This document shows, piece by piece, positions 8,185 through 39,035 of a stretch of DNA of 44,829 bases. A model generated the notes under the pieces. That model saw nothing but the letters and a program-made list of their open reading frames with translations. It made no database searches and was not told the DNA's origin. Both the position numbers and the translations under genes were made by a program. How positions within the stretch are numbered: position 1 is the stretch's first letter; every line of letters begins with the position of its first letter. The DNA is from Escherichia phage VB_EcoS-Golestan. Where the stretch lies: sequence record NC_042084.1; one strand, 5' to 3'.

Positions 8185-8187
8185 TTT

Positions 8188-8700: not shown

Positions 8701-8702
8701 AA

Positions 8703-14149: not shown

Positions 14150-14164
14150 GTAGTGTGCTAGAAT
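14137..14164 (+). promoter_or_regulatory. candidate promoter TTGGGG-N16-TGcTAGAAT (tail operon restart)
   Basis: Extended -10, divergent from 14121-14149. Confidence 0.35.
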
Positions 14165-14256
14165 AATTTTGCGCCTAGTGTCGCACACGAAAAGCGGGTG
14201 GTTCCCGTCTGGCGCATTTCCTTTAACCAGTAACCTCTTAACCAAAGGATTAAAGA

Positions 14257-18788: not shown

Positions 18789-18791
18789 CTT

Positions 18792-19307
18792 ATGAGTCAG
18801 GAATCAGTAGAAGCAGCCTACCGCCGTAAGCTGGCCTCAAACCCCGACGGCGAGATTGACTACACGACGCTGGAGATAGTGCATCCGCTTCTTTCGAAGC
18901 GGTATTTACTTGTGCGCGGGCTACAGGAACTTACGGCAACACTGGAGACAGGCGAAACTATCACATTCGAACCTACCCCGATGGAGGCGTCGGGGGCGGC
19001 TAACAACAGTGATATGGACCAGACGACAACATTCACTCTGCCGGATATTCTCAATCAACTGGATGATGAGATGGATAAAATCCCGATGAGTAATACCGAG
19101 TTACCGAAGTTCATATTCCGCCGTTACGTCAGCACTGACCTGTCTTACCCGGCTGACGGCCCTGTCGTGTACGAGTTACAGGCCATTAATCAGGAGAAGG
19201 GCGAGTTCTCCGCAGATGTCGGTACACCTATGCTGAACCAACGAAGCACTGGTATACTGATGACACCTAAAGAGATACCGTTATTACGCGGCCTGTTGAC
19301 CACATGA
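18792..19307 (+). CDS. minor tail protein (DUF1833 / L-like)
   Basis: Position matches gpL. The N-terminal pattern YTTLEIVHPLLSKRYLLV is as in the DUF1833 family as remembered. Confidence 0.55.
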   Translation: MSQESVEAAYRRKLASNPDGEIDYTTLEIVHPLLSKRYLLVRGLQELTATLETGETITFEPTPMEASGAANNSDMDQTTTFTLPDILNQLDDEMDKIPMSNTELPKFIFRRYVSTDLSYPADGPVVYELQAINQEKGEFSADVGTPMLNQRSTGILMTPKEIPLLRGLLTT

Positions 19308-19669
19308 ATATTAACGACTACACGGGAATACCTTACGACTTTCGCAAACGCAATTGCTGGCATCACGTTCGCATTGTACGGGCCGATGCCGGGTTAGAAA
19401 CCCCGGCGTTCGACGTTACAAGCCCAACGGCGATTAACGAAGCGTTCGACGAAGGCCATCGTGACACGAAGGGGCTTACGAAGATTGATAAGCCTGAAAA
19501 CTTCTGTGCGGTGCTTATGGGGTATCGCCGTGGCGGTCGTATCGTGTGGCACGCGGGAGTTTACTTCGACGGGATGGTGAGTCATTGCGAGCTTGCGTCC
19601 CGTCAGGTACGACTTGACCGGCTGGCGGACCTCAGAGACACGTACACGGAGATTGAATTTTGGCGATAA
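19304..19669 (+). CDS. tail tip assembly protein with NlpC/P60-like Cys-His (K-like)
   Basis: CWHHVRIV...WHAGVY...SHCE gives a Cys/His pattern. The position lies between the L-like and J-like genes. Confidence 0.5.
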   Translation: MNINDYTGIPYDFRKRNCWHHVRIVRADAGLETPAFDVTSPTAINEAFDEGHRDTKGLTKIDKPENFCAVLMGYRRGGRIVWHAGVYFDGMVSHCELASRQVRLDRLADLRDTYTEIEFWR

Positions 19670-22227: not shown

Positions 22228-22239
22228 AGAGGACTCTAT

Positions 22240-24225
22240 ATGTCAAGCGGATGCGGTGACGTTTTAAGCCTGGCGGATTTACAGACCGCCAAGAAACATC
22301 AGATTTTCGAGGCCGAGGTTATCACTGGCAAATCCGGCGGTGTAGCTACGGGTGCAGACATTGATTACGCAACAAATAAGGTTACCGGGCAGACGCAGAA
22401 GACGCTTCCTGCCGTGTTGCGCGACGCGGGTTTTTCTCCGGTGTCATGGGATTTCTCCACAGGCGGCACGTTAACCGTTAACGACCGGGACAAGGTGGTG
22501 TATGACCCTGTTAGCAAAACATGGTACTCGTACGCAGGTACGTTACCAGTTGTTGTCCCTGCATCGTTTAATCCAGTCGGTAACGCTAACTGGAAGCCGC
22601 AGACAGACCCAAATTTGCGTAATGATTTGGCGTCAAGTACCGCCGGTTTGGGGGCTTCACTGGTGTCTTTTTCCAACGGTAACACCGTTGAAACATTATC
22701 TGACGCGGACGGTGCCAAGAACATAGGCAGCGGCGAAAGGAGTTTGCTTGCACGTAACAATGATATTAAGCATTCAGGAGACTTCTCTACCCTGCAAGCT
22801 GCAGTAGATGCATCGTTACAGAAAAATGACTTACTTATTTCCCCTGGTGAATATACTGAAAAAGTTACTATTGGTAGCGCACAGTTAAAAGGCGTTGGCG
22901 GGGCTGTAGTACTAAAAACACCAGCAGACTTTACAAACACTGTTCAGGTTAATTTATCGACGCCTCATTGGCAATTCCGCCATAGTGGCGGTTTTGCTAT
23001 AGATGGTTCTGGTACAACCGGGGCCGTAGGTATTAGTTTTGACCCGTCAGACCAATATTCCGGACGTCATAATTTTAGTGATTTATACATACACAACATC
23101 AACAAGGCAATTCAGAAGCCTTCCGGGAACATCGGTAATACATGGAGAAATATTGGGGTATCTACGTGTGATTGGGGGTATTACGCGATTAGTGGCTCAG
23201 AGATGCATTGCGGGGCCGATACCCTCTACAATATCCACTTCGACGGCATCTCCGCCTATGCCGTCTACCTAAACGGCACTGTCGATAACGGCGGGATAGG
23301 CGGATGGTGGCTTAAAGACTCCATTATTGAGGCTTCCGGAGGCGGCGGGATATATTTAAAAAGCAAATCAGGTGACTGCCCTATATCTCCATGCGGGGTA
23401 TCCAATGTATGGACGGAAGCGATTGCAACATCATCGGCTGTTCAGGTAGACGGCGTGGCGCAAAAACCGCGAGTTCTCAAGTTGGTAGACACCGCGATAT
23501 TCTTTGCTGAGTATTCTTATCTCAATAACATCGAGCTATCCAACTCCAACTTAGTAACTTATGGTTGCCGTTTTGACAACGCCGATGGTAATCAGGATAT
23601 TGTAGTGGATGCACAAAGCACCATCGTAGCCCACGACGTGTATTTAAACGGCAGTTCTGGAAAGGACGTTATTGTAGAGTCTGTCGCGTCGCAATCCGCA
23701 ACGGTAGCCACTACAAACTTGTCTCTGCGAGGAAATTTAACAAGGGGACGAGTGTTTAATACGCCGACGGGGAATAAGTTAAAAGCTATCACATTTGACT
23801 CAGGTAGCCATAATTTTTCTGGTAGCGGTACCGTTAACGGTTCGACTGTATCTGACGGACTTCACGCCGCTACATGTACCGAATTTTCATTCCCTGGGTC
23901 CGGTTTATATGAAATGGTAGCGTCAAGAACGACACTTACATCCGGTAGATGGTACGTGTGGGGCGTCAACTCTCGCCTCCAATCAGGAACAGCAGATGTG
24001 AGTATAACGTCAGGTATTACTATGGGTAGCGTTTATACTAAGTCTGGTGAGTGGATTAGCACATTTGGGGTGGGTAAAGCTTCCGCTAACGGTACTGTAA
24101 GTCTGTACGTCTCTACTGCGGGAGGTTCAGGTGCTGTTATCAGATTTAGCGACTTCTTCATCGCTGAGTTTACGACGCAGGCTCAGGCTTTAGCTTTCGC
24201 TAACTCCAGAATGTCGTTGGCTTAA
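22240..24225 (+). CDS. tailspike (right-handed beta-helix depolymerase-like)
   Basis: The N-terminal module MSSGCGDVLSLADLQTAKKHQIFEAEVITGK is recalled from enterobacterial siphovirus and T5-like spikes. The body has beta-helix-like repeats (GGFAIDGSG, IHNINKA...). Confidence 0.75.
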   Translation: MSSGCGDVLSLADLQTAKKHQIFEAEVITGKSGGVATGADIDYATNKVTGQTQKTLPAVLRDAGFSPVSWDFSTGGTLTVNDRDKVVYDPVSKTWYSYAGTLPVVVPASFNPVGNANWKPQTDPNLRNDLASSTAGLGASLVSFSNGNTVETLSDADGAKNIGSGERSLLARNNDIKHSGDFSTLQAAVDASLQKNDLLISPGEYTEKVTIGSAQLKGVGGAVVLKTPADFTNTVQVNLSTPHWQFRHSGGFAIDGSGTTGAVGISFDPSDQYSGRHNFSDLYIHNINKAIQKPSGNIGNTWRNIGVSTCDWGYYAISGSEMHCGADTLYNIHFDGISAYAVYLNGTVDNGGIGGWWLKDSIIEASGGGGIYLKSKSGDCPISPCGVSNVWTEAIATSSAVQVDGVAQKPRVLKLVDTAIFFAEYSYLNNIELSNSNLVTYGCRFDNADGNQDIVVDAQSTIVAHDVYLNGSSGKDVIVESVASQSATVATTNLSLRGNLTRGRVFNTPTGNKLKAITFDSGSHNFSGSGTVNGSTVSDGLHAATCTEFSFPGSGLYEMVASRTTLTSGRWYVWGVNSRLQSGTADVSITSGITMGSVYTKSGEWISTFGVGKASANGTVSLYVSTAGGSGAVIRFSDFFIAEFTTQAQALAFANSRMSLA

Positions 24226-24229
24226 AACT

Positions 24230-24253
24230 AAGGCCCCAAACGGGGCCTTTTCT
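24230..24253. terminator. bidirectional terminator AAGGCCCC-AAAC-GGGGCCTT
   Basis: Lies between the tailspike gene and the leftward operon end. Confidence 0.7.
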
Positions 24254-24391
24254 CTACTCTTCTGATAACTTCTCCAGTACAAACGCCAGTTGCGCATTAG
24301 CGGCGTCTCTTTGCTGGCGTAATCGTAGAACCTCTTCTTCAAGTTCCTTGATACGTTTTTGTAATGCCGGAATCGGGGCTATGATATTCAT
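24254..24391 (-). CDS. 45-aa coiled-coil micro-protein
   Basis: MNIIAPIPALQKRIKELEEEVLRLRQQRDAANAQLAFVLEKLSEE. It has an ATGA overlap with the Toprim gene stop and is below the track cutoff. Confidence 0.35.
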   Translation of the reverse strand: MNIIAPIPALQKRIKELEEEVLRLRQQRDAANAQLAFVLEKLSEE

Positions 24392-24903
24392 CTGGTAAAT
24401 TTCCTCGCAAGATACGTTATTTCTTCTTCACAAAGTTCATCGAGGTCGTTAGATACAAATCCTCTGGAGAATGTTCTGCTAAATTTTAAACCAGCTTTAT
24501 CATTATCCCCAGCGCACACCCAATCATACGGCAGAAGTGACATTTGCCGCCGTAGGTCAGTTGGTATATTCGACCCAAGTGCGCTTACGGCATTGAACCC
24601 GCAATTCATCAAAGCAACAGCTTTAAATATGCTTTCGGTAACAAATACTGTCCCACTTTCAGGAAGGTACTCCAACCCCCATAAACACGGCCTTGTTGTT
24701 CGGGTAAAGTACCGCGCGTCTTTAGGGTTTTTACAGTTCTTTTCAGCATGTGGCTTGTAATGCTGGTATCCTCGTAGCCTACCGTCAAAACCCCACAAGT
24801 AGAATGTAGCAACGCCAGGGGCTAAGACTACCTGGAGACGGTCTGCGTCAAAACCTCGTGACAGCAGATGCGCCTTAAGTAGTAACTCCTCGCCATCCAT
24901 CAT
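24388..24903 (-). CDS. Toprim-domain (DnaG-like) protein
   Basis: VFVTESIFKAVALMNCGFNAVSALG...CAGDNDKAG gives E...DxD Toprim motifs. Confidence 0.65.
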   Translation of the reverse strand: MMDGEELLLKAHLLSRGFDADRLQVVLAPGVATFYLWGFDGRLRGYQHYKPHAEKNCKNPKDARYFTRTTRPCLWGLEYLPESGTVFVTESIFKAVALMNCGFNAVSALGSNIPTDLRRQMSLLPYDWVCAGDNDKAGLKFSRTFSRGFVSNDLDELCEEEITYLARKFTR

Positions 24904-26324
24904 TTCTTACCTCGTCTCTTCATGTAATTAAGCAACTCTTCCTGTACCGATTTCTTCTCGTCAGTACGTGTGGCAACAACCTCGTCCAGCGTGTCTTTAG
25001 CGACGATGTGATAGAGGAACACCGGTCGCTCGTGCCCCGCTTGTTTCTGGCGGACCGGGCCTATACGCTCAACAACCTGCAAATAGTGCTCAAGGTTCCA
25101 GCCTTGCGAGATGAACGCCAGATGATGACCCCCGTCCTGTAAATTCAAACCATGCCCGGCTGACGCAGGATGCACGCATAAAATCTCGATTTCCCCACGG
25201 TTCCACGCTTCCATCTGCTTATTACCCTTCGCACCTTTGGCAAATGCCTGGGCCTGCGGGAATCGCTTAAGGATGCGCTCCAGTTCGTGCTTGAACTGAT
25301 AGGCCACCAGTAACGGCGCGCCCTGTAACTCTTCCACAATGGACTCCAGTGCGTCCAGTTTCGTGTCGTGCACTTTCTCCCAGTCTTTGGTTGCTTCGCC
25401 GTCAGGGCCCGAAACATACACGGCACCGGAGGCAATCTGCAGACACTTCGACGTCTTCGCCGCAGCGTTAGCCGCTTCAACTTCTCCGCTTTCCAGTTCC
25501 GCGAATAGCTTCTCCTCCATATCGATGTACGCCTGACGTGCTTTCTTCGGCAGGTCGATTTCAACCGGCACGATAACAGGCGCTTCACAACCGAACCACT
25601 CGGCGGCGTCAATCGTCAGACTGATGTCCTTCATCTTCTGGTGAATCTCGTTATCTGCACCAGGGCGGGCGTGATATTCACGTGCCATCGCAGATTTTCC
25701 TTTCTGTACCGAATTAAACCAGCGGTCGGTGAATGCTGTATACGACGAACCTAGGCGCTCGCCAGCGTCGATAAACCAGTTCTGGCCCCACAAATCCTTG
25801 AGGCCGTTTGGTGACGGTGTACCAGTCAGGTTAATAAAACGCTTAACCCTTCCGAAAGCCACTTTACTAAGCGCCTTTGCACGCTTGCTACCACCTGAAC
25901 GGCTGCGGAATGATTTAAGCTTCGTGCTTTCATCTGCAACGATAACCGTAAAAGGCCAGTCGTCTTTGCCGTAGTAGTCAATCAGCCACTCGATAACCTC
26001 ATAGTTCGTGCAAACCACGTTAGCATCTGACTCCAGCGCCGCGATGCGGCGCTTCTCTGAACCAGTCGCATCTACAACACGCAGACATGGGAATTGCCAT
26101 TTCTCTTGCTCTGCAGGCCACGTACCAGACGCAACCCGCAGCGGGGCGAGGATTAACACGCGGTCGTCATCATTAAGTTGGCCGTTTCGGAACAGTCGGT
26201 TTAATGCCCACAGTACGCTGCCAGTCTTCCCAGCGCCCATGCTTGCCCATATGTTGCAGCGATGGTGCCGCAGCATGAACGAAGTCATGAGCTTTTGGTA
26301 CTCACGCCTTTGAAACTTACTCAT
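24900..26324 (-). CDS. SNF2/DEAD-like helicase
   Basis: Walker A SMGAGKTG, a DEST box (VIVADESTKLK) and C-terminal helicase motifs (HPASAGHGLNLQ). Confidence 0.8.
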   Translation of the reverse strand: MSKFQRREYQKLMTSFMLRHHRCNIWASMGAGKTGSVLWALNRLFRNGQLNDDDRVLILAPLRVASGTWPAEQEKWQFPCLRVVDATGSEKRRIAALESDANVVCTNYEVIEWLIDYYGKDDWPFTVIVADESTKLKSFRSRSGGSKRAKALSKVAFGRVKRFINLTGTPSPNGLKDLWGQNWFIDAGERLGSSYTAFTDRWFNSVQKGKSAMAREYHARPGADNEIHQKMKDISLTIDAAEWFGCEAPVIVPVEIDLPKKARQAYIDMEEKLFAELESGEVEAANAAAKTSKCLQIASGAVYVSGPDGEATKDWEKVHDTKLDALESIVEELQGAPLLVAYQFKHELERILKRFPQAQAFAKGAKGNKQMEAWNRGEIEILCVHPASAGHGLNLQDGGHHLAFISQGWNLEHYLQVVERIGPVRQKQAGHERPVFLYHIVAKDTLDEVVATRTDEKKSVQEELLNYMKRRGKK

Positions 26325-27246
26325 TTACCGCCCCCATGAATGCCTTTATAAATTCAGCAGCTACTTGCGGGACGATGGCATTGCCGTAACCGCGCAATCG
26401 TCCCACTCTGGCGGGTATCCCATCAGCCAGCGGGAATGTGCCGGGTTCAACTGGCCTGAATTTTCCATCCCGGCATCCGAGCCAGTCTGCCTCTGACCAG
26501 AAGCCGTGATGCGGATTGGTCGCGATATTTTCAGTCCCTGCTCCGTTGAGTAGTCCAGCCTGTCGAAAGTCCGGTCCTTTCCGTCCTTGCGAATCACTGT
26601 CTCTCCGCTCCCTCTGTAATCGTTCGCGGTCGGCGTCGCCCATGCCGTCATCGCGGCGGCCCACCCCAGTTTGTTCGGTTTCGTCCTGCCGTCTGTGCTG
26701 CGCATGTTCACGTCGTTTGTTATCAGTGATACTGCTGGCGTGGGCCAATCTATGCGCGCCGAAGAAAAGTCGGTCGCGTTTGTGCGGTGCGCCGACGCTA
26801 CAAGCTGGGAGTACGGCAAACCCGACGGCGTAGTTTTCTCCTTCCAGGTGAGTTTGTAAATCGCACATCCACGATTTTGCAATTGCTGGCGCAACCTGCT
26901 CCCCAAAGAGGACTGGAGGGCGGCACTCGCTGATGAGGTCGAGGAACACAGGTGCGAGGTGTCTCGGGTCGAACTGTCCGAGTTGCTTTCCCGCTGCGCT
27001 AAACGGTTGGCAAGGCGGGCTTCCCGTCCAGAGAGGCGCATCTTCCGGAACTCCCGCAAGTCTGAGCGCGAGAGGCCAGCCGCCGATACCAGCGAAAAAA
27101 TGACACTGGGTGAATCCGTCGAGGTCTTCTGGCTTAACTTCAGTAATGCTTCTTTCATCTACAACTCCAAAAGGTATGTGACCCTGTTTTATTAATTCAC
27201 GCAGCCACGCGGCTGCGCCTTTATCCCATTCGTTGTAATAGTTCAT
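26317..27246 (-). CDS. DNA (cytosine-5) methyltransferase
   Basis: Motif I FFAGIGGW, motif IV PPCQPFSAAGK, motif VI FGEQV, motif VIII APHKRDRLFF and motif X GYGNAIVPQVA. Residues about 165-245 are R/D/E/Q/G-rich low complexity. Confidence 0.85.
   Translation of the reverse strand: MNYYNEWDKGAAAWLRELIKQGHIPFGVVDERSITEVKPEDLDGFTQCHFFAGIGGWPLALRLAGVPEDAPLWTGSPPCQPFSAAGKQLGQFDPRHLAPVFLDLISECRPPVLFGEQVAPAIAKSWMCDLQTHLEGENYAVGFAVLPACSVGAPHKRDRLFFGAHRLAHASSITDNKRREHAQHRRQDETEQTGVGRRDDGMGDADRERLQRERRDSDSQGRKGPDFRQAGLLNGAGTENIATNPHHGFWSEADWLGCRDGKFRPVEPGTFPLADGIPARVGRLRGYGNAIVPQVAAEFIKAFMGAVNE
26361..27158 (-). CDS. alternative-frame ORF nested in the methyltransferase gene (WPTP-repeat region); coding status unresolved
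   Basis: 265 codons in the +1 frame on the same strand. GGAG lies 6 nt before the ATG. The C-terminal 170 aa carry KLTWKEKTTPSG, DWPTP, AWATPTAND and LNPAHSRWLMGYPPEWD. Confidence 0.35.
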   Translation of the reverse strand: MKEALLKLSQKTSTDSPSVIFSLVSAAGLSRSDLREFRKMRLSGREARLANRLAQRESNSDSSTRDTSHLCSSTSSASAALQSSLGSRLRQQLQNRGCAIYKLTWKEKTTPSGLPYSQLVASAHRTNATDFSSARIDWPTPAVSLITNDVNMRSTDGRTKPNKLGWAAAMTAWATPTANDYRGSGETVIRKDGKDRTFDRLDYSTEQGLKISRPIRITASGQRQTGSDAGMENSGQLNPAHSRWLMGYPPEWDDCAVTAMPSSRK

Positions 27247-27434
27247 TTTGCCACCAGAACTAACTCTTTACGCCCGAACGCCGTAACGTTACCGGTTACA
27301 TCTTCGATAACCAGTTTACCGTTCGACTCGACGTACACCGTATCAACGGCAACAGGCCGACGGGTCTTAACGTTGAAAATCATGTCGCCAGGTACGATGT
27401 CACGTGCTGGTTTGCGGTCATATTCGTGTTTCAT
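27243..27434 (-). CDS. hypothetical protein (63 aa)
   Basis: First ORF downstream of the leftward promoter at 27468-27496. It has an ATGA overlap with the methyltransferase gene. Confidence 0.55.
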   Translation of the reverse strand: MKHEYDRKPARDIVPGDMIFNVKTRRPVAVDTVYVESNGKLVIEDVTGNVTAFGRKELVLVAK

Positions 27435-27464
27435 TTCTCAATTCCTTATATTGTTGGTGTAGGA

Positions 27465-27752
27465 CTAACTATAATAGTTCGCTATTAGGGCGTCAACCTG
27501 TTTAAACGAACCAACGACAAAAACATTAGCACCACGCTTACGCATCCGCTCGTGCTCCCGTAACTGGTGTGGATCCGGCTTCGTGCTTTCGTCTTTCTTT
27601 ATCTCGACGAACCAGATGACGCCGCCGGGGAGAATTACCAGCAGGTCAGGGGCGCCGGAACGTCCTTCGTAGGAAAGTTTACGAACGAGGCCACCAATGG
27701 CCTCGAATCGGTCTTTTGCGTATTTCTGTATTTTGCCCTCAGGCGTACTCAT
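27465..27752 (-). CDS. VRR-NUC domain nuclease
   Basis: GAPDLLVILPGG...FVEIKKD gives PD-(D/E)xK motifs. The ATG at 27752 (MSTPEGK) is preferred over the track start. Confidence 0.7.
   Translation of the reverse strand: MSTPEGKIQKYAKDRFEAIGGLVRKLSYEGRSGAPDLLVILPGGVIWFVEIKKDESTKPDPHQLREHERMRKRGANVFVVGSFKQVDALIANYYS
27468..27496 (-). promoter_or_regulatory. class II promoter TTGACG-N17-TATAGT
   Basis: Lies inside the 3' end of the VRR-NUC gene. The spacer carries the palindrome AATAG-N4-CTATT. Confidence 0.5.
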
Positions 27753-27837
27753 CCACACACCCCTCACGTTTCGTATGCGCAATACCACAGCGCGGACAGA
27801 TCCGGCGGTCTTCTTCGTAGAACCAGTAAATTTTCAT
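27739..27837 (-). CDS. 32-aa Cys-containing micro-protein
   Basis: MKIYWFYEEDRRICPRCGIAHTKREGCVDEYA. It has an ATGA overlap with the upstream micro-ORF. Confidence 0.3.
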   Translation of the reverse strand: MKIYWFYEEDRRICPRCGIAHTKREGCVDEYA

Positions 27838-27965
27838 TCCAGCACCCACAGATAAATTGTTACTAACATACCTAATACGGCAACCATCATGCCGTATTGA
27901 CCCTCGTGACAGTAGACACCGGCGGCGAATCCCGCCAGTACCGCAATAATCAGTTTACTTGGCAT
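27834..27965 (-). CDS. 43-aa membrane micro-protein
   Basis: MPSKLIIAVLAGFAAGVYCHEGQYGMMVAVLGMLVTIYLWVLE. It starts inside the polymerase gene 3' end. Confidence 0.3.
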   Translation of the reverse strand: MPSKLIIAVLAGFAAGVYCHEGQYGMMVAVLGMLVTIYLWVLE

Positions 27966-30219
27966 ATCGCTTCATCTCCGCACCTTCAGCTACAAGAGGG
28001 AACCCCTCCGCCCATTCCGGCAATTCGCACATCAACCGCTCAAGCTCTGCTACATTGTATTCCGGTGAATCTGGTGTCTCGCAGATAATCTCATCGTGTA
28101 CGTGAAGTACAATCGGGTAGCCGTTTGCTTCTACGTTCAGCAGGGCATTAGCCAGCAAATCACGGCACAATGCCTGAGTGCAGTTTTCCACCAGTTTACC
28201 CGAGTAGGTGTACTGGAACCCCCACTGACGGGTTAGCTGATTTTCGCCCTGGTACTTAATGCGCACGTTAGTAGACACCTTCCCGTCTCCATCTGTTTCT
28301 TTCGACACGCTCAACCCGACGCCCGGATAAGACATAACGCGACCCGACGGCAACGTCATGCGCAACCACCAACCAGCGACTTTGTTGCCGTTGTTGTCCG
28401 TTTCTACGTTACGCGAAAACTTAACACCCCGCGGTCCCGCAGTGAACTCTTTACCTGGATTGCGGATAGCTGCCATAGCGGCGTCTTCAATATCCCGCCA
28501 GAACGCTACTGTTTCCGGGTGGGACTCGCGCCACATGCGCTTGATAGCGTCACAGGTACGCCACACTTTCTTATCAAGAATATACGATGGTCGGTCATCC
28601 TTTTCACCTGGCCGCGGAGGTCGCTTGGCTTCCTGAATACGTGCCCATTCATAGCCGCGTGCAGTAGCGGCCCATATATGGTCGGGGAATGTCCCGTCCA
28701 TTGTTTTTGCCATATCAACCAGGTTTAAGCCGAGGTTCTTAGCAAACTGAACGAAAGCACCGACACCACCAGCATAGCCAAGGCCCAATTCACATGCTTT
28801 ACCTATCTGGCGTAGGTCACTACGGCTTTCGAGAATGTAATCAGGGTCCATGCCGAACATCTTACCCGCGGTTACACAGTAAATATCCAATCCCGCACGG
28901 AAGGTATCGAGAGCGGTTTCTTCTCCCGCCAGCCATGCCAACCCGCGACCTTCAACGTTAGAGTAATCAGCTACGACAAACTTACGCCCGGCTTCCGGTA
29001 TGATGCAGCTACGCACCGTCGATGCCGTTAGCTTGGCTACATCGAAACGGCGATGCGCGCGGCCTTTAAACAACAGGTCGATTCCGTAGGACAATGGGTG
29101 TGTTACTCTCCACCAGTCCTTCTCTGACATCCAGTCATAACGTACTTTCTTCTTTTTATTCTTCGGGTCGTCATGATAGTACCCGCGCGCCAGGTTCTGT
29201 GGCTGGAAGCCTTTACCCGCGAACCGTAACGTACGCTTTGCCCCACCGTACTGGATACAACCGCGGCGTCGGTCGTCCGACGAGCGGCCTAACAGCAGCG
29301 GGTTATATTTCGTGGACGCTGTTGACGCGGCCCCGAGGCGCATTTCGATAATCGTGCGGGCGTCGTCAGGTAAATCATCATCGGCCAGCAGGTCATTCAG
29401 CGTCGACTTCTGTGCGTTGTGTATGCGGTGTGCGGGGGCCAGTTCACGTAGAATAGGCAGAAAGTCCTTACCGGTAAGCGAGCCGCCGTATTTACGTTGA
29501 GCTTCTTCCTGTAACTGTGCCTTGTGCTTCTCTACGGCTTCAATCGCGGCTTCCGCCAGTGCGACGTCAACCTTAAATCCGCGGTCGTTGATTAACTGGT
29601 CAAGTTCCAGTACACGGTCTTCGAACTCGGAGTTACCCCAACGCGGCAGCTTATGGAAGACTTCACGCATCGCAGTGATGTCGCTCACGGCGTACCTGAT
29701 GAACATCGCCCACTCGTCAGGGTGAGTTTCTGCGGTGTAGCGGCGGATTTTGTAGTTCTTCGGCGTCGGTTTAGAGAAACGCTTAATCAGAGCCTTGCCG
29801 CGTTTATCTTTCGCGTTGTCGGCGGATACACCCAGCACTTCGCACAGCGCATCAAGAGAACCCGGTAGCGCGTGACGAAACGCCCAAATCATAGTATCAA
29901 TGGTGTTGCTTACCGGAATATCAAAGCCCCAGCAGTGCTTCATGATGAGCCTATCGAAAAGTCCACCGTTGTGCCATACCATCTTAATGCGACTGTTTGG
30001 CTTAACCAGACGGCGTAGAGCGCGGTGTAAATCCACGGGCATATCACTGCCGTCGGTGCAATCCCATACCTGTACAGGCTCGTCGTCAAAAGCGTAGGTA
30101 CAGATAAGCACTTCGGTAGTTGGATGCTCGGCGTAAGCATAGGAGCCGACTTTCTTCAAATCGGCTTCGGAGAATGTTTCAAAGTCTAAGTAAAGCAATG
30201 TGTTCATAGTCTGTACCAC
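27955..30219 (-). CDS. DNA polymerase, family A, with 3'-5' exonuclease domain
   Basis: Exo I LDFETFS, motif A VADYSNVEGR, motif B RQIGKACELGLGYAGG and motif C HVHDEI. Confidence 0.9.
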   Translation of the reverse strand: MVQTMNTLLYLDFETFSEADLKKVGSYAYAEHPTTEVLICTYAFDDEPVQVWDCTDGSDMPVDLHRALRRLVKPNSRIKMVWHNGGLFDRLIMKHCWGFDIPVSNTIDTMIWAFRHALPGSLDALCEVLGVSADNAKDKRGKALIKRFSKPTPKNYKIRRYTAETHPDEWAMFIRYAVSDITAMREVFHKLPRWGNSEFEDRVLELDQLINDRGFKVDVALAEAAIEAVEKHKAQLQEEAQRKYGGSLTGKDFLPILRELAPAHRIHNAQKSTLNDLLADDDLPDDARTIIEMRLGAASTASTKYNPLLLGRSSDDRRRGCIQYGGAKRTLRFAGKGFQPQNLARGYYHDDPKNKKKKVRYDWMSEKDWWRVTHPLSYGIDLLFKGRAHRRFDVAKLTASTVRSCIIPEAGRKFVVADYSNVEGRGLAWLAGEETALDTFRAGLDIYCVTAGKMFGMDPDYILESRSDLRQIGKACELGLGYAGGVGAFVQFAKNLGLNLVDMAKTMDGTFPDHIWAATARGYEWARIQEAKRPPRPGEKDDRPSYILDKKVWRTCDAIKRMWRESHPETVAFWRDIEDAAMAAIRNPGKEFTAGPRGVKFSRNVETDNNGNKVAGWWLRMTLPSGRVMSYPGVGLSVSKETDGDGKVSTNVRIKYQGENQLTRQWGFQYTYSGKLVENCTQALCRDLLANALLNVEANGYPIVLHVHDEIICETPDSPEYNVAELERLMCELPEWAEGFPLVAEGAEMKRYAK

Positions 30220-30482
30220 GTCTGATAGTCTGCTTCTGTGAGATGGTCGTCGCGATCTTGTTTCTTGTTTTTACCGCGTTCTATGATTTCTGCCCAAGTC
30301 CGGTCTGGGTCTGTGTCTTCTATTAAATGTTTATGCTCCTCGCATGCATAGTGTTTATACCAGTCTCGTACACCGTAAGCTGGAGGGTATTTAGTCATCC
30401 AAATTGCTCTAACTTTTTTACCTTCTGCCTTACAAAATTTGCAGTATGTGATGCGTCTGTATCTCTTAAGTTCCGCTGCCAT
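30204..30482 (-). CDS. hypothetical protein (Cys/His-containing, 92 aa)
   Basis: ORF overlapping the polymerase start by 16 nt. It contains CKFCK...CEEHKH. Confidence 0.5.
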   Translation of the reverse strand: MAAELKRYRRITYCKFCKAEGKKVRAIWMTKYPPAYGVRDWYKHYACEEHKHLIEDTDPDRTWAEIIERGKNKKQDRDDHLTEADYQTWYRL

Positions 30483-30496
30483 TATTTTCGACCCTT

Positions 30497-30524
30497 AGTA
30501 AAAAGGCCCAATGAAGGGCCTTAG
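30497..30524 (-). terminator. intrinsic terminator after the SSB gene
   Basis: AAGGCCC-TTCATT-GGGCCTT + TTTTAC on the minus strand. Confidence 0.6.
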
Positions 30525-30541
30525 TTAAATTGATTCAGATA

Positions 30542-31171
30542 TTAGCGGCGGCGACGTTCGCGGCGCGGTGCTTCATCTTCTTCTTCGTCGTCTTCCAGGT
30601 CATTGACGCTCGCAGCGACTTTAGAACCGCCGAACGCTTTGCCTTCGCCAACGTATTTAATCGCCAGCAGGTTAACGCCGAGGACTTTATATTTCTGGCT
30701 GAACCAGATTTCTACGCTTACGTTAGCAACGCAGCCGCTGTAAACCTGTTCACCTTCAATCTGTTCACCGTCTACATTGAAGTCCTGCTCTACCTGAGTC
30801 TCGCCTTTTTTAGAGGTTACAATCAGCGGTTGTTTCTGTGCCTTCGCTTTGAAGTAGAAGCCTTCCGGGAAGTCTTCAAACGGATTGTCGCGCTCGGCAA
30901 TGTCTTTAATCGCGCATTTATCCATGTGCTTACCTTCACCGTAGTTGGACTTCATCCATTTCTCGGCAGCGGCTGCGCCTAACGCTTCTTCAACTACAGC
31001 GTAAACGGTGTCGTAGAGCGCATCGATTTGCGCATGGTCAGACGGCAGGATAATCGTTGCGCTGTACTGACCTTTAGTGATTGATCCATCGTCGTTTTCA
31101 CGGTCTTTTTCGCGTTCGAATACGTTAACCCAGGCAGTGTTTACTTTACGCAGATTTAATTTCAGTCCCAT
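30542..31171 (-). CDS. single-stranded DNA-binding protein (DUF2815-like)
   Basis: 209 aa with an acidic tail DLEDDEEEDE. It lies adjacent to the DUF2800-like nuclease, as in T1-like modules as remembered, and has a strong promoter and its own terminator. Confidence 0.6.
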   Translation of the reverse strand: MGLKLNLRKVNTAWVNVFEREKDRENDDGSITKGQYSATIILPSDHAQIDALYDTVYAVVEEALGAAAAEKWMKSNYGEGKHMDKCAIKDIAERDNPFEDFPEGFYFKAKAQKQPLIVTSKKGETQVEQDFNVDGEQIEGEQVYSGCVANVSVEIWFSQKYKVLGVNLLAIKYVGEGKAFGGSKVAASVNDLEDDEEEDEAPRRERRRR

Positions 31172-31184
31172 TTGATTTCTCGCT

Positions 31185-31205
31185 TTTCAGTTTCAGTTTC
31201 AGTTT
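31185..31205 (-). repeat. hexanucleotide repeat (TTTCAG)3 on the plus strand = (CUGAAA)3 in the SSB 5' UTR
   Basis: Counted directly. Confidence 0.9.
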
Positions 31206-31235
31206 ACTCCGGGATCTGCCCGGCCAGTGATTAGA

Positions 31236-31264
31236 ACTATAATAGCTAACTATTCATGTGTCAA
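31236..31264 (-). promoter_or_regulatory. class II promoter TTGACA-N17-TATAGT (SSB operon)
   Basis: Consensus -35 with 17-nt spacer. The palindrome lies in the spacer. Confidence 0.6.
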
Positions 31265-31453
31265 ATAAAATTTTGCAATAGGGATTATGTTCTCGAAATT
31301 AAGCATATTGGCCGGTTCGAACTCATCCTCTACAGGGTAGTATCGCATCATGGTACCGTTCAAGAACGTGAACGATTCCGAGTGTAGATACCCATCCCAG
31401 CGCCATACCATCAAAAAATCTTTATCAGTCGGCATTTCATTTACTTGAATCAT
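31250..31453 (-). CDS. hypothetical protein (67 aa)
   Basis: SD GGAGGA precedes ATG 31453, which has an ATGA overlap with the nuclease stop. Confidence 0.5.
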   Translation of the reverse strand: MIQVNEMPTDKDFLMVWRWDGYLHSESFTFLNGTMMRYYPVEDEFEPANMLNFENIIPIAKFYLTHE

Positions 31454-32691
31454 TCTAAATCCTCCTCTGTAACTTGATTCCACTCAGGACGTTTGTCATC
31501 CGCCGTTGCGACGCATGGCGCACCGGGCTTACGGGTAATGAAGTCTTTCAGTTCTTCTTCCGGTACAATTTTAACCGCTTCGGTCGGTGTCATAAGAACT
31601 ACCTTTTGCAGCATAGTACCGTACTTCTCGAATACTGCATCGGTATCTTTCCACGCACGATTACCCGGGCGTCCTTCAACCAACTTGTAACCAGGAACTT
31701 TCTTACCTGAATGCAACGCGGCCGCCATAGCTTTCTCAACCTTGTCGATGTGCTGGCGCAACAGCGGCAACTTCTCATACTCAGCTACGAGTTGCTCCGG
31801 CGTCAGTTCCAGCACAAAGTCGTCTTCCAGTTCTTCCGCCAGTACAGAATTAACCGTCTTTGTACGCGCAGCGCATTGTTCAGAGAACCGGCACCACTGA
31901 CAACCATCTACCGATGGCTTGAAGTCCGACGCTTTCAGGTTCTTCTTGCCACGGAAATACGCATCAAGCGCTAACAGCGCGCGTTTCTGTGCGAACTTAG
32001 CGAACAGTTCCAGTCCTTCAACCGAGATGTCCCACTCTGTCGCACCCCCAGCGTAAGGCTGGAAGATGACCAGACGAACGGTTGTTATGTTATAACGTCT
32101 CTTGAGTCGACGATAAACACCGAGAGCGTAAAGCATAAGCTGCTTGTTTTCTTTCGCTTCGACGCGATGCCGCCCGGTTTTCAGGTCGCCGATAATGAGC
32201 ATGTGCTCGTCGGTGTTTGCCAGTTCCTGGACAGCAACGAGGTCAGCGGTTCCGAACGTCTCAACGCCTTCATACCCCGGATGCAATACCTCAGTAAGAT
32301 TAACACGCATTTCCAGCTTGGCGTAAGTCGCTATATCGATAATCGCCTTGCAGTAGTCGGTGTACTTGCGCACCTGCTCAATCATGTCCGCCGTAATCAG
32401 TACCGCGCCTTTCATCGGGCTGATTAGTGCCTTAATCTGGCCTTTGCCTTCATCCAGCACGTAAGCACCGACTTCACGCTCTAACGGCAGCGCAGTTCCG
32501 CGAATATAAGCGTTGAGATGGACCTCAGCTATGGTGTGCATTGCCGTGCCTAATACAGCGGCTTTACCTGGCGTGTTAGGGATATCTTTTTCACAGGCCA
32601 GTGATGCCGCGCAACTTAGCCACTTTTTAGCCCCTGACGGCGACAGTAAGGCATGTACATCGTTATTGCCGCCGCGTTCTTTAAGAATCAT
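31450..32691 (-). CDS. PD-(D/E)XK exonuclease (DUF2800 / Cas4-like)
   Basis: The N-terminal motif is LLSPSGAKKWLSCAAS. Also present are GDLKTG and a C-terminal Cys cluster CQWCRFSEQC. Confidence 0.7.
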   Translation of the reverse strand: MILKERGGNNDVHALLSPSGAKKWLSCAASLACEKDIPNTPGKAAVLGTAMHTIAEVHLNAYIRGTALPLEREVGAYVLDEGKGQIKALISPMKGAVLITADMIEQVRKYTDYCKAIIDIATYAKLEMRVNLTEVLHPGYEGVETFGTADLVAVQELANTDEHMLIIGDLKTGRHRVEAKENKQLMLYALGVYRRLKRRYNITTVRLVIFQPYAGGATEWDISVEGLELFAKFAQKRALLALDAYFRGKKNLKASDFKPSVDGCQWCRFSEQCAARTKTVNSVLAEELEDDFVLELTPEQLVAEYEKLPLLRQHIDKVEKAMAAALHSGKKVPGYKLVEGRPGNRAWKDTDAVFEKYGTMLQKVVLMTPTEAVKIVPEEELKDFITRKPGAPCVATADDKRPEWNQVTEEDLE

Positions 32692-34648: not shown

Positions 34649-36906
34649 TCCAAATCCTCCTCTGTCACTGTCAACATTTCATTCGGTTCGTATATTGTCT
34701 TTGGAATCTTGTTATCGTTTATGCCCCACGGCAGTCGATATTGCTTAGGTATAGGCCTGTTGTTGTTATCCAGCCCAGAGACGATAACTCCCGCCTCGTG
34801 CATCTCTTCCAGTTTCTTTCGAAGGTCGTTATTAGCGTTAATTGGTACGCCGTAACTATCCTCTTTCGCGGCTTTGACGATAGCGGACATAGAAAACCCG
34901 CGCTTGTCGTCGCCCTGCTCCTGCAATTTACCCAACGCGTAAATAACCGTAGCCTCTTTGGTGTCCAGTTTCTCGAACTGACCTACCTTTTCTTTAACGG
35001 CTTCCTTCTGTTCGTCGGTCATACCTTCTACTTTCTTCACGAAGACAGAGAAGGCGTTAAAGTTAACAAAGACATCGATGTGCGGATTTCCCGCGTCAAA
35101 ATCTCGTACATCGTCACTACTATACCCTTCCGGAAGCCCCATGAAGTTGTGAGTTGGTTCTTTCTTTTCCGGTGGCTCCGCTATCTGAATCTTCTGTATT
35201 ACGAATCCTCTGGCTTTCTGCCGTTCTCCGTTTCGGTTCTTTATGTGATACAGGTTTATCTCTAAGTTATTGTCGTTGTCCGGCTTATGCAGGAACATCC
35301 CATTATCAATGGAGTTGTGAAAGTCGCTTCCACCCTTCGGCATCATGCCGTTTTCAGACGGCACAGTTTCGTCGATGTTTTTAGTCGGGTGCACCATAGC
35401 GCCGACCGCGGCGTTAAGCGTCGACGCTATTTCGTTAAGCGCCTGCGCCGCTTCTTTCATCGACCTGTTGTCGTTCTCGTCGAAGCCAGGTATGCAAGTT
35501 TGTAGGGTATCAAACGTAACCTTTACAATTTTCTCTTCACCGGCAACACGGCGCATCATTCTTACTGCCCGGCGGCGCCACACCTCATCGAGTAAGTTAC
35601 ACCCATCCGCAACACAATCGATAATGTGCAAGCGGTCAAGGTTGTCACCGAGGGCGATTTGCAAAGACTTTTTATGACGCTCGAACGACTGTGCACCTTC
35701 ACCGGCGAAAATGAACGCATGTCCTTCCGCGACCTCCGCCCCACCGAACGCATATCTTTTTTCGGAGGCAATAGCGGCGTCAATCGCCATGCTAAATGTT
35801 GACTTACCGGTGTGGGACTTTGCGCAAATGTAGAATGATTCGTTAGTCTGCATAAGGCCGTCTACGACGGAGTAAGCAGGTTCTTTTTCAACTTCCGGCT
35901 CGTCTTCGAGGTCTTCCAGCGTGCAAGTTACAGGCTCCTCGTTCTCTGTGCGATGCAGTTCTTCAACCTCTTCGTCCGGTAAATCAGGCAAAGCCGCACG
36001 AATGCTGTTAATACTGATAGGTTGCTTGTCTACGTTAAGCTCGTCCGGAAGGCCGCACATACGCAGGGCTAGATGTTGCCGGCGGTTAAGCTCGGTACAA
36101 GCGCCATTGTTTGTGTGCTGGCAGACAAAGCGCACTTCTTTACCGTCAAGCATGATGCTGGTGGAGCCTTTACCGGTGTGCAGGTGTTCGTTAGGGCAGG
36201 GCACTTCGTACCCGCGCCCGGAAGATAAAGCGTCAAGTCCAAGCTCCGCTTCGCAGAAATGCGCTATATCTGCGTTAAGCCCATGCTCATCAGCGGCAAG
36301 TGTCTTAGCTTCACGTTTACGCAACCCCATCTCTTCGGCTTTCTTGATGTACCGCTCCGCACGGATAACACGCCCTTCTGTAACCGTTATCTTCGACTCT
36401 CTATGCGGCAGGTAGATAAGGCGGTTGCCGTCTTCTGTGCAGTGGTCACGCAATGCCTCGTCTATTTCTAACTCTGCACAAATAGCCCGTTGCACCATCC
36501 ACGCATCGTTAGAGTTAAACGGCGTGCGAGCCGGAACCAGAACGCGGAAGGCGTAATCACCGTTTTTACACGCGTGCTGATGGGATGCCGTTGTGTGTAG
36601 AATATTGAAGAACGGCGCGTTCTTGAATTTGCGGGTAAGGTCGCGGTACTGAGTACGGTTGAGATGGTCGAAGTCAAACTTAACCACACTGTCTTCCAGA
36701 ATCGCGTTTTTACGGCGACCCCCAACGGGGGCGATAGCCTTCTGCTTAATCTTGGCAGCGTCGTACTCTTCCTTAGTCCATGACGGGTCTACGGACAGAC
36801 GCTTCGATGTATCGCAGACATATTCTACGAACTGCTCCAGCGGCATTTCACGCGCTACAGGGTTTTTATCGAATGTGTTGCGCAGCGTTGCAAAAACAAT
36901 ATTCAT
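34645..36906 (-). CDS. primase-polymerase (AEP-like) / RecA-fold helicase fusion
   Basis: The N-terminus has DxD (VKFDFDH) and an SxH-like motif (TTASHQH). A central Cys/His cluster is CPNEHLH...CQH...C. The Walker A is AKSHTGKST. Confidence 0.6.
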   Translation of the reverse strand: MNIVFATLRNTFDKNPVAREMPLEQFVEYVCDTSKRLSVDPSWTKEEYDAAKIKQKAIAPVGGRRKNAILEDSVVKFDFDHLNRTQYRDLTRKFKNAPFFNILHTTASHQHACKNGDYAFRVLVPARTPFNSNDAWMVQRAICAELEIDEALRDHCTEDGNRLIYLPHRESKITVTEGRVIRAERYIKKAEEMGLRKREAKTLAADEHGLNADIAHFCEAELGLDALSSGRGYEVPCPNEHLHTGKGSTSIMLDGKEVRFVCQHTNNGACTELNRRQHLALRMCGLPDELNVDKQPISINSIRAALPDLPDEEVEELHRTENEEPVTCTLEDLEDEPEVEKEPAYSVVDGLMQTNESFYICAKSHTGKSTFSMAIDAAIASEKRYAFGGAEVAEGHAFIFAGEGAQSFERHKKSLQIALGDNLDRLHIIDCVADGCNLLDEVWRRRAVRMMRRVAGEEKIVKVTFDTLQTCIPGFDENDNRSMKEAAQALNEIASTLNAAVGAMVHPTKNIDETVPSENGMMPKGGSDFHNSIDNGMFLHKPDNDNNLEINLYHIKNRNGERQKARGFVIQKIQIAEPPEKKEPTHNFMGLPEGYSSDDVRDFDAGNPHIDVFVNFNAFSVFVKKVEGMTDEQKEAVKEKVGQFEKLDTKEATVIYALGKLQEQGDDKRGFSMSAIVKAAKEDSYGVPINANNDLRKKLEEMHEAGVIVSGLDNNNRPIPKQYRLPWGINDNKIPKTIYEPNEMLTVTEEDLE

Positions 36907-37031
36907 TTCTTTTTCTCCGCACGTTCTAAGGCTTCCTGCATACGACGCATTGCGCGGTTCATCTTTACCGGTGCGAAGAAATCAGCGCCATGTTTCTGGC
37001 GGCGTAGCTGTGGAACTATTAACTTCGACAT
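36903..37031 (-). CDS. 42-aa basic micro-protein
   Basis: MSKLIVPQLRRQKHGADFFAPVKMNRAMRRMQEALERAEKKK. SD AAGGA lies upstream, and it has an ATGA overlap with the primase-helicase start. Confidence 0.35.
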   Translation of the reverse strand: MSKLIVPQLRRQKHGADFFAPVKMNRAMRRMQEALERAEKKK

Positions 37032-37081
37032 TGTATAATCCTTGTGCTTACTTTGATGATTTGTGCTTTAGCCCCGACGTT

Positions 37082-37494: not shown

Positions 37495-37525
37495 TTTCAT
37501 ATCTCCTGTTTGTTTGGTGAAAACG

Positions 37526-37554
37526 AGTATAGGATAGCGGGAATGTAAAAGCAA
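37526..37554 (-). promoter_or_regulatory. promoter TTGCTT-N17-TATACT
   Basis: Upstream of the AlpA-like HTH gene and divergent from the leader-2 promoter. Confidence 0.45.
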
Positions 37555-37601
37555 CTAAAACACCACACAAAGTTACTAAGATACAAAAGATGCTACTGGT
37601 A

Positions 37602-37630
37602 TTGACTTTTACTAAAAAATATGGTAAGCT
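37602..37630 (+). promoter_or_regulatory. promoter TTGACT-N17-TAAGCT (leader module 2)
   Basis: Paralog of 4980-5008. Confidence 0.6.
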
Positions 37631-37636
37631 CAGCCT

Positions 37637-37858
37637 GAGCTTGTGAAGTATGAACAAGCGACCGCGGCGCGCGGCAGGCGAAACGAGCACGTGTAGCGTG
37701 TGGAGTGAGGCTCGCTAGCGCGTTTGGGAGGCCCAAAGTCTATTGTAAATCCCACCTAAATATCTAAGTTACTGATTTGCCGTAGGTCAGAACCGCAAGC
37801 TCACTCACTCACTCACTCACTCACTCTTGGTGCCTTCGGCACCACGTTCGTTTCGTTT
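37637..37858 (+). ncRNA. putative ~220-nt leader/terminated transcript 2
   Basis: Paralog of leader 1 (identical block 37634-37671). It contains (CTCA)6 and ends at the hairpin 37829-37843. Confidence 0.35.
37800..37826 (+). repeat. tetranucleotide repeat (CTCA)6 + CTC
   Basis: Counted directly. Noncoding and inside leader 2. Confidence 0.95.
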
Positions 37859-37860
37859 CG
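37829..37860 (+). terminator. hairpin GGTGCC-TTC-GGCACC + U-containing tail (end of leader 2)
   Basis: Read directly. The tail is ACGTTCGTTTCGTTTCG. Confidence 0.4.
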
Positions 37861-37910
37861 CTCGCCATCCCATTAAACGAAAGAATCACAACGGCAACGT
37901 AACTATTCTC

Positions 37911-37939
37911 TTGCACACCCCAACATAATAGGATACTAT
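37911..37939 (+). promoter_or_regulatory. class I promoter TTGCAC-N17-TACTAT
   Basis: Exact hexamers. The leader reads TCACTTATCGAAACGAG then AGGAG. Confidence 0.6.
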
Positions 37940-37973
37940 TCACTTATCGAAACGAGACAGAGGAGTGAGGGTT

Positions 37974-38165
37974 ATGTTTAAGAAGGGTCAGTTGGTTAAA
38001 ACTAAACGCGGAGGGCAATATGTATTAGTGTTGCAGGACGAGAGCGAGTATGACGAGGATAATCTGGTTGACGTATGGGGTCTGGTAAGAAAGAAAACTG
38101 GGTTCGCCTCACGCGATAATTTAGAACTCATCGGCAACAATTTTAAATTCAAAGGGGTGAAGTGA
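37974..38165 (+). CDS. hypothetical protein (63 aa)
   Basis: AGGAG lies 8 nt before ATG 37974. It is the first gene after the promoter at 37911. Confidence 0.55.
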   Translation: MFKKGQLVKTKRGGQYVLVLQDESEYDEDNLVDVWGLVRKKTGFASRDNLELIGNNFKFKGVK

Positions 38166-38997: not shown

Positions 38998-39035
38998 TAC
39001 GCTGCTACACAGCAGCGTATCATTTTTCTCATTTT
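38998..39035 (+). terminator. intrinsic terminator TACGCTGCT-ACAC-AGCAGCGTA + T tracts
   Basis: 9-bp stem followed by TCATTTTTCTCATTTTT. Confidence 0.7.

Follow-up and report, generated by a model that had tools for sequence, protein, structure and literature searches.

A probable family of structured leader RNAs in the Guernseyvirinae, with two copies in Escherichia phage VB_EcoS-Golestan

Introduction

The put elements of phage HK022 are structured, cis-acting RNAs with two bulged stem-loops that occur right after a sigma-70 promoter and require no dedicated phage antiterminator protein; there are two copies per genome, putL begins at +3 of its transcript, and both intrinsic and Rho-dependent termination are suppressed (PMC9378689). 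The present work concerns a pair of related sequences in Escherichia phage VB_EcoS-Golestan (Kagunavirus, Guernseyvirinae; NC_042084.1), whose complete genome of 44,829 bp is referred to here as the window. These are two copies of a leader module, which together with their promoters occupy 4980-5124 (copy 1) and 37602-37746 (copy 2). The module very probably represents a real family of structured leader RNAs; the family is previously undescribed and spans the Guernseyvirinae subfamily.

A put RNA is about 70 nt long, its two stem-loops form a V, and its action is blocked by mutations in the zinc-binding domain of the beta' subunit. Lambda Q depends on a DNA site within the promoter and on a sigma-dependent pause; a conserved RNA fold of 110 nt is not required. 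A further processive system, the eps-associated RNA (EAR) of Bacillus subtilis, which Irnov and Winkler are said to have described in 2010, is reportedly a structured cis RNA of ~120 nt that promotes processive terminator read-through in a long operon. The int-alpA RNA (RF02996) has no known function. The Guernseyvirinae (Kagunavirus, Jerseyvirus and Cornellvirus) are among the most isolated and therapeutically used siphoviruses of E. coli and Salmonella; to our knowledge, they encode no RNA polymerase and no recognised antiterminator. Literature searches on the transcripts of this phage group found a single gene-level RNA-seq study, in which non-coding regions are not addressed.

Two copies of the module

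The region 37500-38000 matches 4980-5123 with 79% identity over 147 nt (E=1e-24, blastn against the window), a similarity that lies far above chance and recurs in hundreds of related phage genomes (feature coordinates are collected in Table 1). The promoter and the first 38 nt are identical between the copies, and the remainder has diverged. A preliminary description of copy 2, made from the sequence of the window, had reported this sharing, and it is borne out: the 38-mer CCTGAGCTTGTGAAGTATGAACAAGCGACCGCGGCGCG occurs exactly at 5012-5049 and at 37634-37671, and the promoter common to both copies reads TTGACT, 17 bp, TGnTAAGCT. The TTGACT and TAAGCT hexamers and their spacing are identical in 28/28 distinct Kagunavirus copies. 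Because the -10 agrees with TATAAT at only three of six positions, a generic promoter scan misses the copy 2 promoter; we infer the module promoter from its extended -10 TG and its strict conservation. Transcription of copy 2 is predicted to start at ~37637.

The 1-nt indel directly after the 38-mer, also reported earlier, is recovered by the alignment. It breaks the frame of the shared ATG, which reads MNKRPRRGQVTERDVRS-stop in copy 1 and MNKRPRRAAGETSTCSVWSEAR-stop in copy 2, the two differing after codon 7, and the ATG, which lies in the P1 loop, is absent from the Jersey-, D- and E-type homologues described below. The differing frames, the lack of an ATG in the other types and the compensatory changes in the stems together indicate selection on the RNA and not on a peptide, as had been proposed. 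A leader peptide or small protein was rejected, as the frame is not conserved among homologues. A mini-ORF after the Shine-Dalgarno-like GGAAGGG (UUG-UAA in copy 2, UUG CUU GUG UAA in copy 1) was also rejected, since by eye it is not kept in the D- and E-types.

The motif GGAGTGAGG had been placed at 37703-37711 of copy 2; it is indeed present, one nucleotide earlier, at 37702-37710, and its second occurrence (37962-37970) is the ribosome-binding site (RBS) of gene 37974. The suggestion that a (CTCA)6 tract could pair with this motif holds, in that the tract is a (CTCA)6.8 microsatellite and GAGUGAG can pair with CUCACUC. The tract is expanded relative to six related contigs examined, all of which have (CTCA)3; it is variable in length, and lies in a C-rich stretch that is predicted to be transcribed and untranslated.

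Two features of the promoter regions may be mentioned here. An inverted repeat, AAGCTCAG-C-CTGAGCTT (37627-37643), covers the -10 and start site of copy 2; copy 1, at the equivalent 5005-5021, and relatives retain no more of it than the outer 6 bp (AAGCTC...GAGCTT). In Jersey-type loci, the -10 TACGCT is directly repeated 3 nt downstream, where it could act as a sigma-dependent pause element. The region upstream of copy 1 (4927-4979) contains two direct TATTCCA repeats and a perfect 12-bp palindrome, CTATTCGAATAG (4968-4979), centred near -41.5, with TTATTCC repeats further upstream; related GGAATAAAnTATTC palindromes occupy the same place in Jersey- and D-type phages. This arrangement suggests that the copy 1 promoter may be regulated, and possibly activated, by a DNA-binding protein sharing half-sites with the class I operator. 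A palindrome of the CTATTCGAATAG kind was not found upstream of copy 2.

Table 1. Features of the two module copies and of their surroundings in the window
Feature	Position	Strand	Details	Basis
Copy 1 promoter	4968-5008	+	-35 4980-4985; -10 5003-5008	sequence
Copy 1 structured module	5014-5124	+	P1 5017-5037; P2/P3 5040-5105; tail to 5124	R1 131.7 bits
Copy 1 hairpin, 24 nt before spanin start codon	5190-5209	+	GCCCCGC-TTTAAG-GCGGGGC, then TTTACTTAT	dG -15.8, T-tail 3.0, d = +14
Copy 2 promoter	37602-37630	+	-35 TTGACT 37602-37607; 17-bp spacer; extended -10 TG 37622-37623; -10 TAAGCT 37625-37630	sequence
Copy 2 structured module	37636-37746	+	P1 37639-37644/37654-37659; P2 37662-37679/37712-37727; P3 37688-37692/37698-37702; 3' tail 37728-37746 (UUGGGAGGCCCAAAGUCUAUUG)	R1 92.4 bits, E=4.5e-22
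Copy 2 linker	37747-37799	+	weakly similar to copy 1 linker (GTTACTGA..CCGT)	pairwise alignment, relatives
(CTCA)6.8 microsatellite	37800-37826	+		Tandem Repeats Finder
Copy 2 GC hairpin	37829-37843	+	GGTGCCTTCGGCACC, GGTGCC-TTC-GGCACC, then ACGTTCGTTTCGTTTCG	dG -8.9, T-tail 0.56, d = -49
Class I promoter	37911-37939	+	TTGCAC-17-TACTAT, predicted start ~37946	sequence; predicted
Operator-like palindrome	37927-37940		AATAG-N4-CTATT; overlaps class I -10	
First gene of rightward early/lysis/packaging operon	37974-38165	+	RBS repeats GGAGTGAGG (37962-37970)	annotation
Terminator-like hairpins in lysis/packaging operon	2756-2771, 38998-39019	+		terminator scan
Terminator-like hairpin inside spanin-capsid operon	7581-7602	+	after major capsid gene	terminator scan
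Bidirectional terminator closing spanin-capsid operon	11655-11674			terminator scan
Rightward block 1	37974 -> 4319	+	small genes, holins, lysozyme, terS (44819), on via terL (28) to 4319, portal and beyond	annotation
Rightward block 2	5234-11650	+	spanin, capsid, head-tail operon headed by copy 1	annotation
Rightward block 3	14257-24225	+	tail genes	annotation

Fold and covariation

Scanning IMG/VR for an exact 21-mer yielded 40 loci, among which 28 module sequences are distinct. In the fold predicted by RNAalifold from 21 distinct copies, the hairpin P1 (GCUUGU/ACAAGC) begins 2-3 nt past the predicted start and is followed by an irregular long hairpin, P2, with an apical and variable P3; the module is ~110 nt long, with a tail of the form CGGAAGGGYC-NNR-GUCUAUUG. 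Five compensatory pairs are found among these copies, with changes in P3 and P2 (for example, C-G to U-A in 7 sequences and U-A to A-U in 5). An alignment of 26 distinct rows, including the Jersey-type, gives 96.8% pairing cells compared with 28-46% in controls with slid partners, changes on both sides in 12 of 25 pairs, and a covariation score of 0.367 compared with 0.02-0.075 in the controls; these figures are somewhat inflated because the alignment was fitted to a covariance model. An independent MAFFT alignment agrees with the fold. The conserved G-U pairs identify the + strand as the functional one. Between the covarying helices, purine-rich internal loops (AACGGAGC / GAGUGUAG) are conserved in the Kaguna-type.

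At gathering thresholds, Rfam 15 detects only the int-alpA RNA (14168-14232) in the whole window. The two copies have only chance-level Rfam matches at E up to 10, with none to int-alpA, and Rfam searches of 16 related loci and of phage K1G added nothing at the module. Several known motifs were also tried and set aside. A pseudoknot joining the P1 loop (AGUAUG) to the tail (CAUACU) would have complementary partners in the copy 1-type only; most modules have CAUAGU, and the loop change in relative L056 is uncompensated. By eye, the UAGCG loops fit the RfaH ops element GGCGGTAGCGTG at 8-9/12 positions in some types and at 5/12 in the Kaguna-type, so that the likeness is not conserved, and no consistent fit of the internal loop to a K-turn, loop E or UAA/GAN motif was found. 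The 5190 hairpin shares only the CCCCGC/GCGGGG stem, and not the flanks, with the type I-E CRISPR repeat, and mimicry of that repeat was rejected.

Distribution among relatives

A covariance model of the Kagunavirus module (R1), run on loci fetched through the capsid protein, finds the module ~210 nt upstream of the spanin gene in 29/29 Kagunavirus loci scored (94.7-137.6 bits), and a diverged module (~38 bits) in 11 Jersey-type loci. For a second model combining the Kaguna-type and Jersey-type (R2), the best match in D- and E-type loci falls exactly at the leader site, with marginal E values of 0.03-0.7 (~0.03 in L121 and L123, 0.23 in L095). A blastn search of deposited phage genomes detects the Kaguna-type module in 179 records at 220 places, with two per genome in only some; the Jersey-type in 268 records, one each; and the D-type (Cornellvirus FSL SP-031, phiEap-2, Hafnia TS33 and 'pink') in 13 records, one each. 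In Kaguna-, Jersey- and D-types, the order of promoter, 5' hairpin, two-part long hairpin, tail, linker, GC hairpin and spanin start codon is kept, and the diverged D- and E-type leaders have the same architecture at the same place before the spanin gene. Comparison of the types suggests a common core, GCGACCGC...CGGAAGGGYC-NNR-GUCU. In the D-type, a large hairpin lies upstream of this shared core and not inside it; by eye, the purine-rich AACGAGC-like and AGYGAGG-like loop motifs appear to have exchanged strands between the Kaguna-type and the D-type. Judging from these loci, the head of the spanin-capsid late operon is the ancestral and universal place of the module in the Guernseyvirinae. 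The module also accounts for a conserved 'empty' intergenic region and for several spurious 'hypothetical protein' calls placed over it.

Three relatives (L062, L063 and L078) lack the module and have an unrelated leader with TTTGCGAG repeats at the spanin-upstream site. Five or six copies of TTGCGAG, in both orientations, occur round their capsid-operon promoter region, which looks like a different, protein-operated cassette.

Copy 2 is limited to a subset of Kagunaviruses, where it lies upstream of the rightward early/lysis/packaging operon. Where one genome has two copies, their P2/P3 'alleles' usually differ, but promoter and P1 are identical. The type C core occurs unchanged in L007 and L055, at the capsid locus, and in L020, at the copy-2 locus, and modules have therefore been exchanged between loci and are presumably biochemically equivalent. 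In phage K1G (L124), the module was not found at the copy-2 locus (36640-37040), which contains a strong promoter (TTGACA-16-TAAAAT), ~330 nt of AU-rich non-coding sequence, a long hairpin and a class I promoter. The 5' part of the non-coding unit at this locus is thus a swappable cassette. The K1G leader also has a GCCCCGC/GCGGGGC hairpin and ends in ...CCCCGUCUAUUU, which recalls the module tail; it has no Rfam match.

Terminators and a possible role in read-through

Terminators were scored with a d'Aubenton-Carafa-type score (T-tail, d). Of the phage hairpins scored, that of copy 1 ranks highest as an intrinsic terminator. The promoter scan found no promoter-like site between the copy 1 module and the spanin-capsid operon other than copy 1's own, and the module must therefore be a 5' leader; with this as the only promoter-like element for the operon and a strong terminator ahead, the terminator must be read through. 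At copy 2, the hairpin reported in the preliminary description is present, as is the separate class I promoter placed at 37911. As folded, the hairpin has a 6-bp stem and a 3-nt loop (by eye, a UUCG tetraloop on a 5-bp stem), and the ACGTTCGTTTCG that follows gives it values (T-tail 0.56-0.94, d -49 to -40) poorer than those of any other hairpin scored. The remaining hairpins of the phage have T-tails of 2.3-3.2, and a control terminator sequence labelled lambda tR2-like has 4.55. In relatives with the module at the copy-2 locus, a long hairpin replaces that at 37829-37843, and it too lacks an adjacent U-tract.

The module adjoins its promoter, its fold is conserved, a terminator lies ahead of the operon and others lie within it, the two copies head long operons, and no protein antiterminator has been recognised; for these reasons, a leader affecting elongation or termination in cis is the reading we favour. 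On balance, copy 2 seems to be mainly a leader and not a stand-alone gene. It is quite possibly a paralogue of a conserved structured 5'-leader RNA of ~110 nt that controls termination or read-through in cis; that the module controls termination specifically is a more tentative proposal. Once folded, the nascent RNA would act in cis, by itself or together with a phage factor, on the RNA polymerase that made it, which would then pass hairpins, terminators and a Rho-loading stretch downstream, by put-like or nut-like logic. The obstacles to be passed at copy 1 would be the hairpins at 5190-5209 and 7581-7602; at copy 2, they would be the C-rich (CTCA)n and the hairpins at 37829-37843, 38998-39019 and 2756-2771. 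From a promoter that precedes the early class I promoter, copy 2 would thereby allow the lysis and packaging genes to be transcribed late and with resistance to terminators. A search for a Q- or N-like antiterminator among 19 protein queries against Pfam and PHROGs found none; these represent 17 distinct proteins, namely two helix-turn-helix proteins queried in both libraries and 15 annotated or unknown-function proteins. The matches were to HTH_17 and HTH_3 regulators, a weak NinH-family match, and primase- and kinase-like proteins.

A number of points weigh against this cis-acting leader. We infer the mechanism of read-through control from anatomy alone. The U-tail of the GC hairpin behind the module is weak in the Jersey- and D-types (T-tail ~1.85), so that a regulated terminator as such is not conserved. 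The module is present on just one of the three rightward late operons in most members of the subfamily, and the tail operon has another leader, int-alpA. In the E-type, P1 seems to start ~25 nt past the predicted start. Copy 2 has a promoter of its own downstream, so the genes behind it need no copy 2. Internal-loop sequences diverge fast between genera, which fits a co-evolving phage partner better than a conserved host polymerase. Finally, R1, run unfiltered on the immunity region of HK022 (24000-32000), where PL-putL and PR-putR are expected (the module model against put, not the reverse), gives a best match of 4.9 bits (E=3.9), and no similarity to put was found.

Alternative explanations

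In the preliminary description, copy 2 was seen as an RNA gene in its own right, about 220 nt long, and not simply as a 5' untranslated region (UTR). Such a non-coding RNA would start at ~37637, end shortly after 37843 at ~210-260 nt, and act in trans, as a base-pairing small RNA (sRNA) or as a decoy titrating whatever binds the copy 1 leader. An own promoter and another promoter for the downstream genes, as would be expected of a stand-alone sRNA, are present (37602-37630 and 37911-37939, both predicted), whereas a GC hairpin with an immediate U-rich tract is absent at 37829-37843. With the worst U-tail scored, that hairpin provides no Hfq-type 3' end, and the alternative hairpin of relatives does no better. 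The 3' end could instead be made by Rho acting on the (CTCA)n, with trimming back to the 37829-37843 hairpin, rather than by intrinsic termination: the untranslated linker and (CTCA)n have a C/G of 3.0, above the genome 99th percentile of 2.34 (the copy 1 linker has 0.53), and Rho could load on this C-rich, G-poor stretch. That K1G keeps a non-coding unit at the locus even though its 5' part is swapped also speaks for a separate gene, as does the absence from the copy 2 promoter of the -41.5 palindrome, which implies that the two copies are differently regulated. At copy 1, however, the same RNA can only be a 5' UTR, and modules, including their core, are swapped between the loci. Nor do the searches for targets favour action in trans. 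No module match was found by blastn in 5,426 complete E. coli genomes, which led us to reject both an origin in the host and a long target there; in the phage, neither another copy nor an antisense copy of the 23-nt tail occurs within 3 mismatches; and duplex energies, a weak method, reveal no outlier target among 78 phage translation-initiation regions. The claim of an independent gene is thus not upheld, and we consider a stand-alone RNA unlikely.

There are two further explanations, both of which we regard as rather improbable. The 5' hairpin and compact fold might guard late transcripts from RNase E and RppH, with the GC hairpin as a boundary for processing or protection and the polymerase unaffected. 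This would suit the Kaguna-, Jersey- and D-types, in which P1 lies at the predicted 5' end, and the conservation of the GC hairpin just before the RBS even where its U-tail is weak. A small hairpin would suffice for such a purpose, however, whereas ~110 nt are conserved, including internal loops and a single-stranded tail; an identical promoter and first 38 nt with a diverged remainder is likewise hard to reconcile with stabilisation or processing, and in the E-type P1 is away from the predicted 5' end. Alternatively, the leader could be a sensor, either a riboswitch or a protein-binding attenuator, in which binding of a metabolite or of a phage or host protein decides between termination and read-through and so times late expression. 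Copy 1 does have the order of aptamer-like domain, linker, strong terminator and RBS, its conserved purine-rich loops lie between covarying helices, and the presence of both loop motifs on swapped strands in the D-type would be expected if the loop is a binding site. Against a sensor, no aptamer class matches at Rfam gathering scores or at E up to 10, the loops vary between genera, which is unusual for a metabolite pocket, no covariation-supported alternative pairing between module and terminator was found, and the 19 protein queries include no candidate RNA-binding protein. GCGAAACGAGC (37679-37689) could also pair with GUUCGUUUCGU beyond the hairpin, but this was rejected as not significant, as roughly 0.2 such matches are estimated to occur by chance.

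Genomic context

By annotation, the rightward genes form three blocks (Table 1), and the leftward blocks contain replication and accessory genes. The window and ON001686.1 (vB_EcoS_SCS44, L001) are equal in length and differ by 220 scattered substitutions within 3483-41839, none of which falls in copy 2 or in 37500-38000; two lie in the copy 1 leader, at 5141 and at 5201, the latter in the hairpin loop.

The int-alpA RNA on the + strand scores 36.6 bits (threshold 35.8) and is located at the predicted start of the tail operon, with an extended -10 promoter, TGCTAGAAT (14156-14164), directly upstream. Two of the three rightward late blocks (capsid and tail) therefore open directly with a structured RNA at the transcript 5' end, and in the third, a structured RNA lies ~340 nt upstream of the first gene, ahead of the class I promoter. 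In a distant relative, the int-alpA motif is found between structural genes (L117:1447-1512).

The 30-bp class I element corresponds to a consensus that was reported as a repeated 'phage promoter' for fBC-Eco01 (PMC9825357). Eight occurrences of the palindrome AATAG-N4-CTATT are found in the window (4884, 14120, 27473, 31241, 34134, 37927, 38971 and 39129), where ~0.04 are expected; as it overlaps the -10 of class I promoters, it resembles an operator to which a phage helix-turn-helix regulator might bind. In the predicted read-through transcript from 37637, the RBS of gene 37974 (GAGGAGUGAGGG) pairs with UCACUU (37940-37945), with a mean unpaired probability of 0.15, whereas folding of the transcript from the class I promoter (~37946) predicts an open RBS (0.87). 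It may be, given this predicted pairing, that the first early gene is poorly translated from read-through transcripts.

Comparison with known systems and significance

An unannotated RNA that is supported by covariation and heads the capsid operon in hundreds of genomes provides a concrete handle on late-gene expression. If a phage factor binds the module, the two would form a new RNA-protein regulatory pair; if the module is put-like, the Guernseyvirinae would join a single other phage family in having the host polymerase reprogrammed by RNA alone. In its strongest form, which we think unlikely, the module would be a second RNA-only family of processive antiterminators, unrelated to put. The nascent 110-nt RNA would bind the RNA polymerase of E. 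coli or Salmonella near the RNA exit channel, with the purine-rich internal loop as the polymerase-binding surface, and would confer resistance to intrinsic and Rho-dependent terminators across the capsid operon or, for copy 2, the lysis/packaging operon.

HK022 put is possibly the nearest functional analogue. The module resembles it in having a predicted sigma-70 promoter, a structured RNA that opens close to the predicted start, as putL does at +3, a position at the head of a terminator-containing operon (hairpins are predicted on the + strand at 5190, 7581, 37828, 38998 and 2756) and two copies here (4980-5124 and 37602-37746). Most Guernseyvirinae relatives, however, have one module copy only. 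The two stems of put are comparable, whereas the module has two stem-loop domains of very different sizes, a 21-nt P1 and a 66-nt P2/P3, and a conserved tail, and put is located on the early operons of a temperate lambdoid phage, whereas the module heads the capsid operon of virulent siphoviruses.

Other systems share particular features. EAR lies inside an operon of a Gram-positive chromosome, not at the 5' end of a transcript, and has no Rfam-level similarity to the module. The int-alpA RNA is a positional analogue in the same genome, directly after the extended -10 promoter of the third rightward late operon; it has an outer stem enclosing two hairpins, and the module does not match RF02996. 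The analogy with lambda Q is limited in that no Q-like protein was found among the 19 queries here, and an early-transcribed copy of the -10 is clear in the Jersey-type only (TACGCT twice). The lambda PR'-6S RNA-tR' unit resembles the module loci in its constitutive-looking promoter, its non-coding leader of ~200 nt and its terminator directly before the late operon, and it illustrates that a short discrete RNA and a read-through leader can both hold for one unit.

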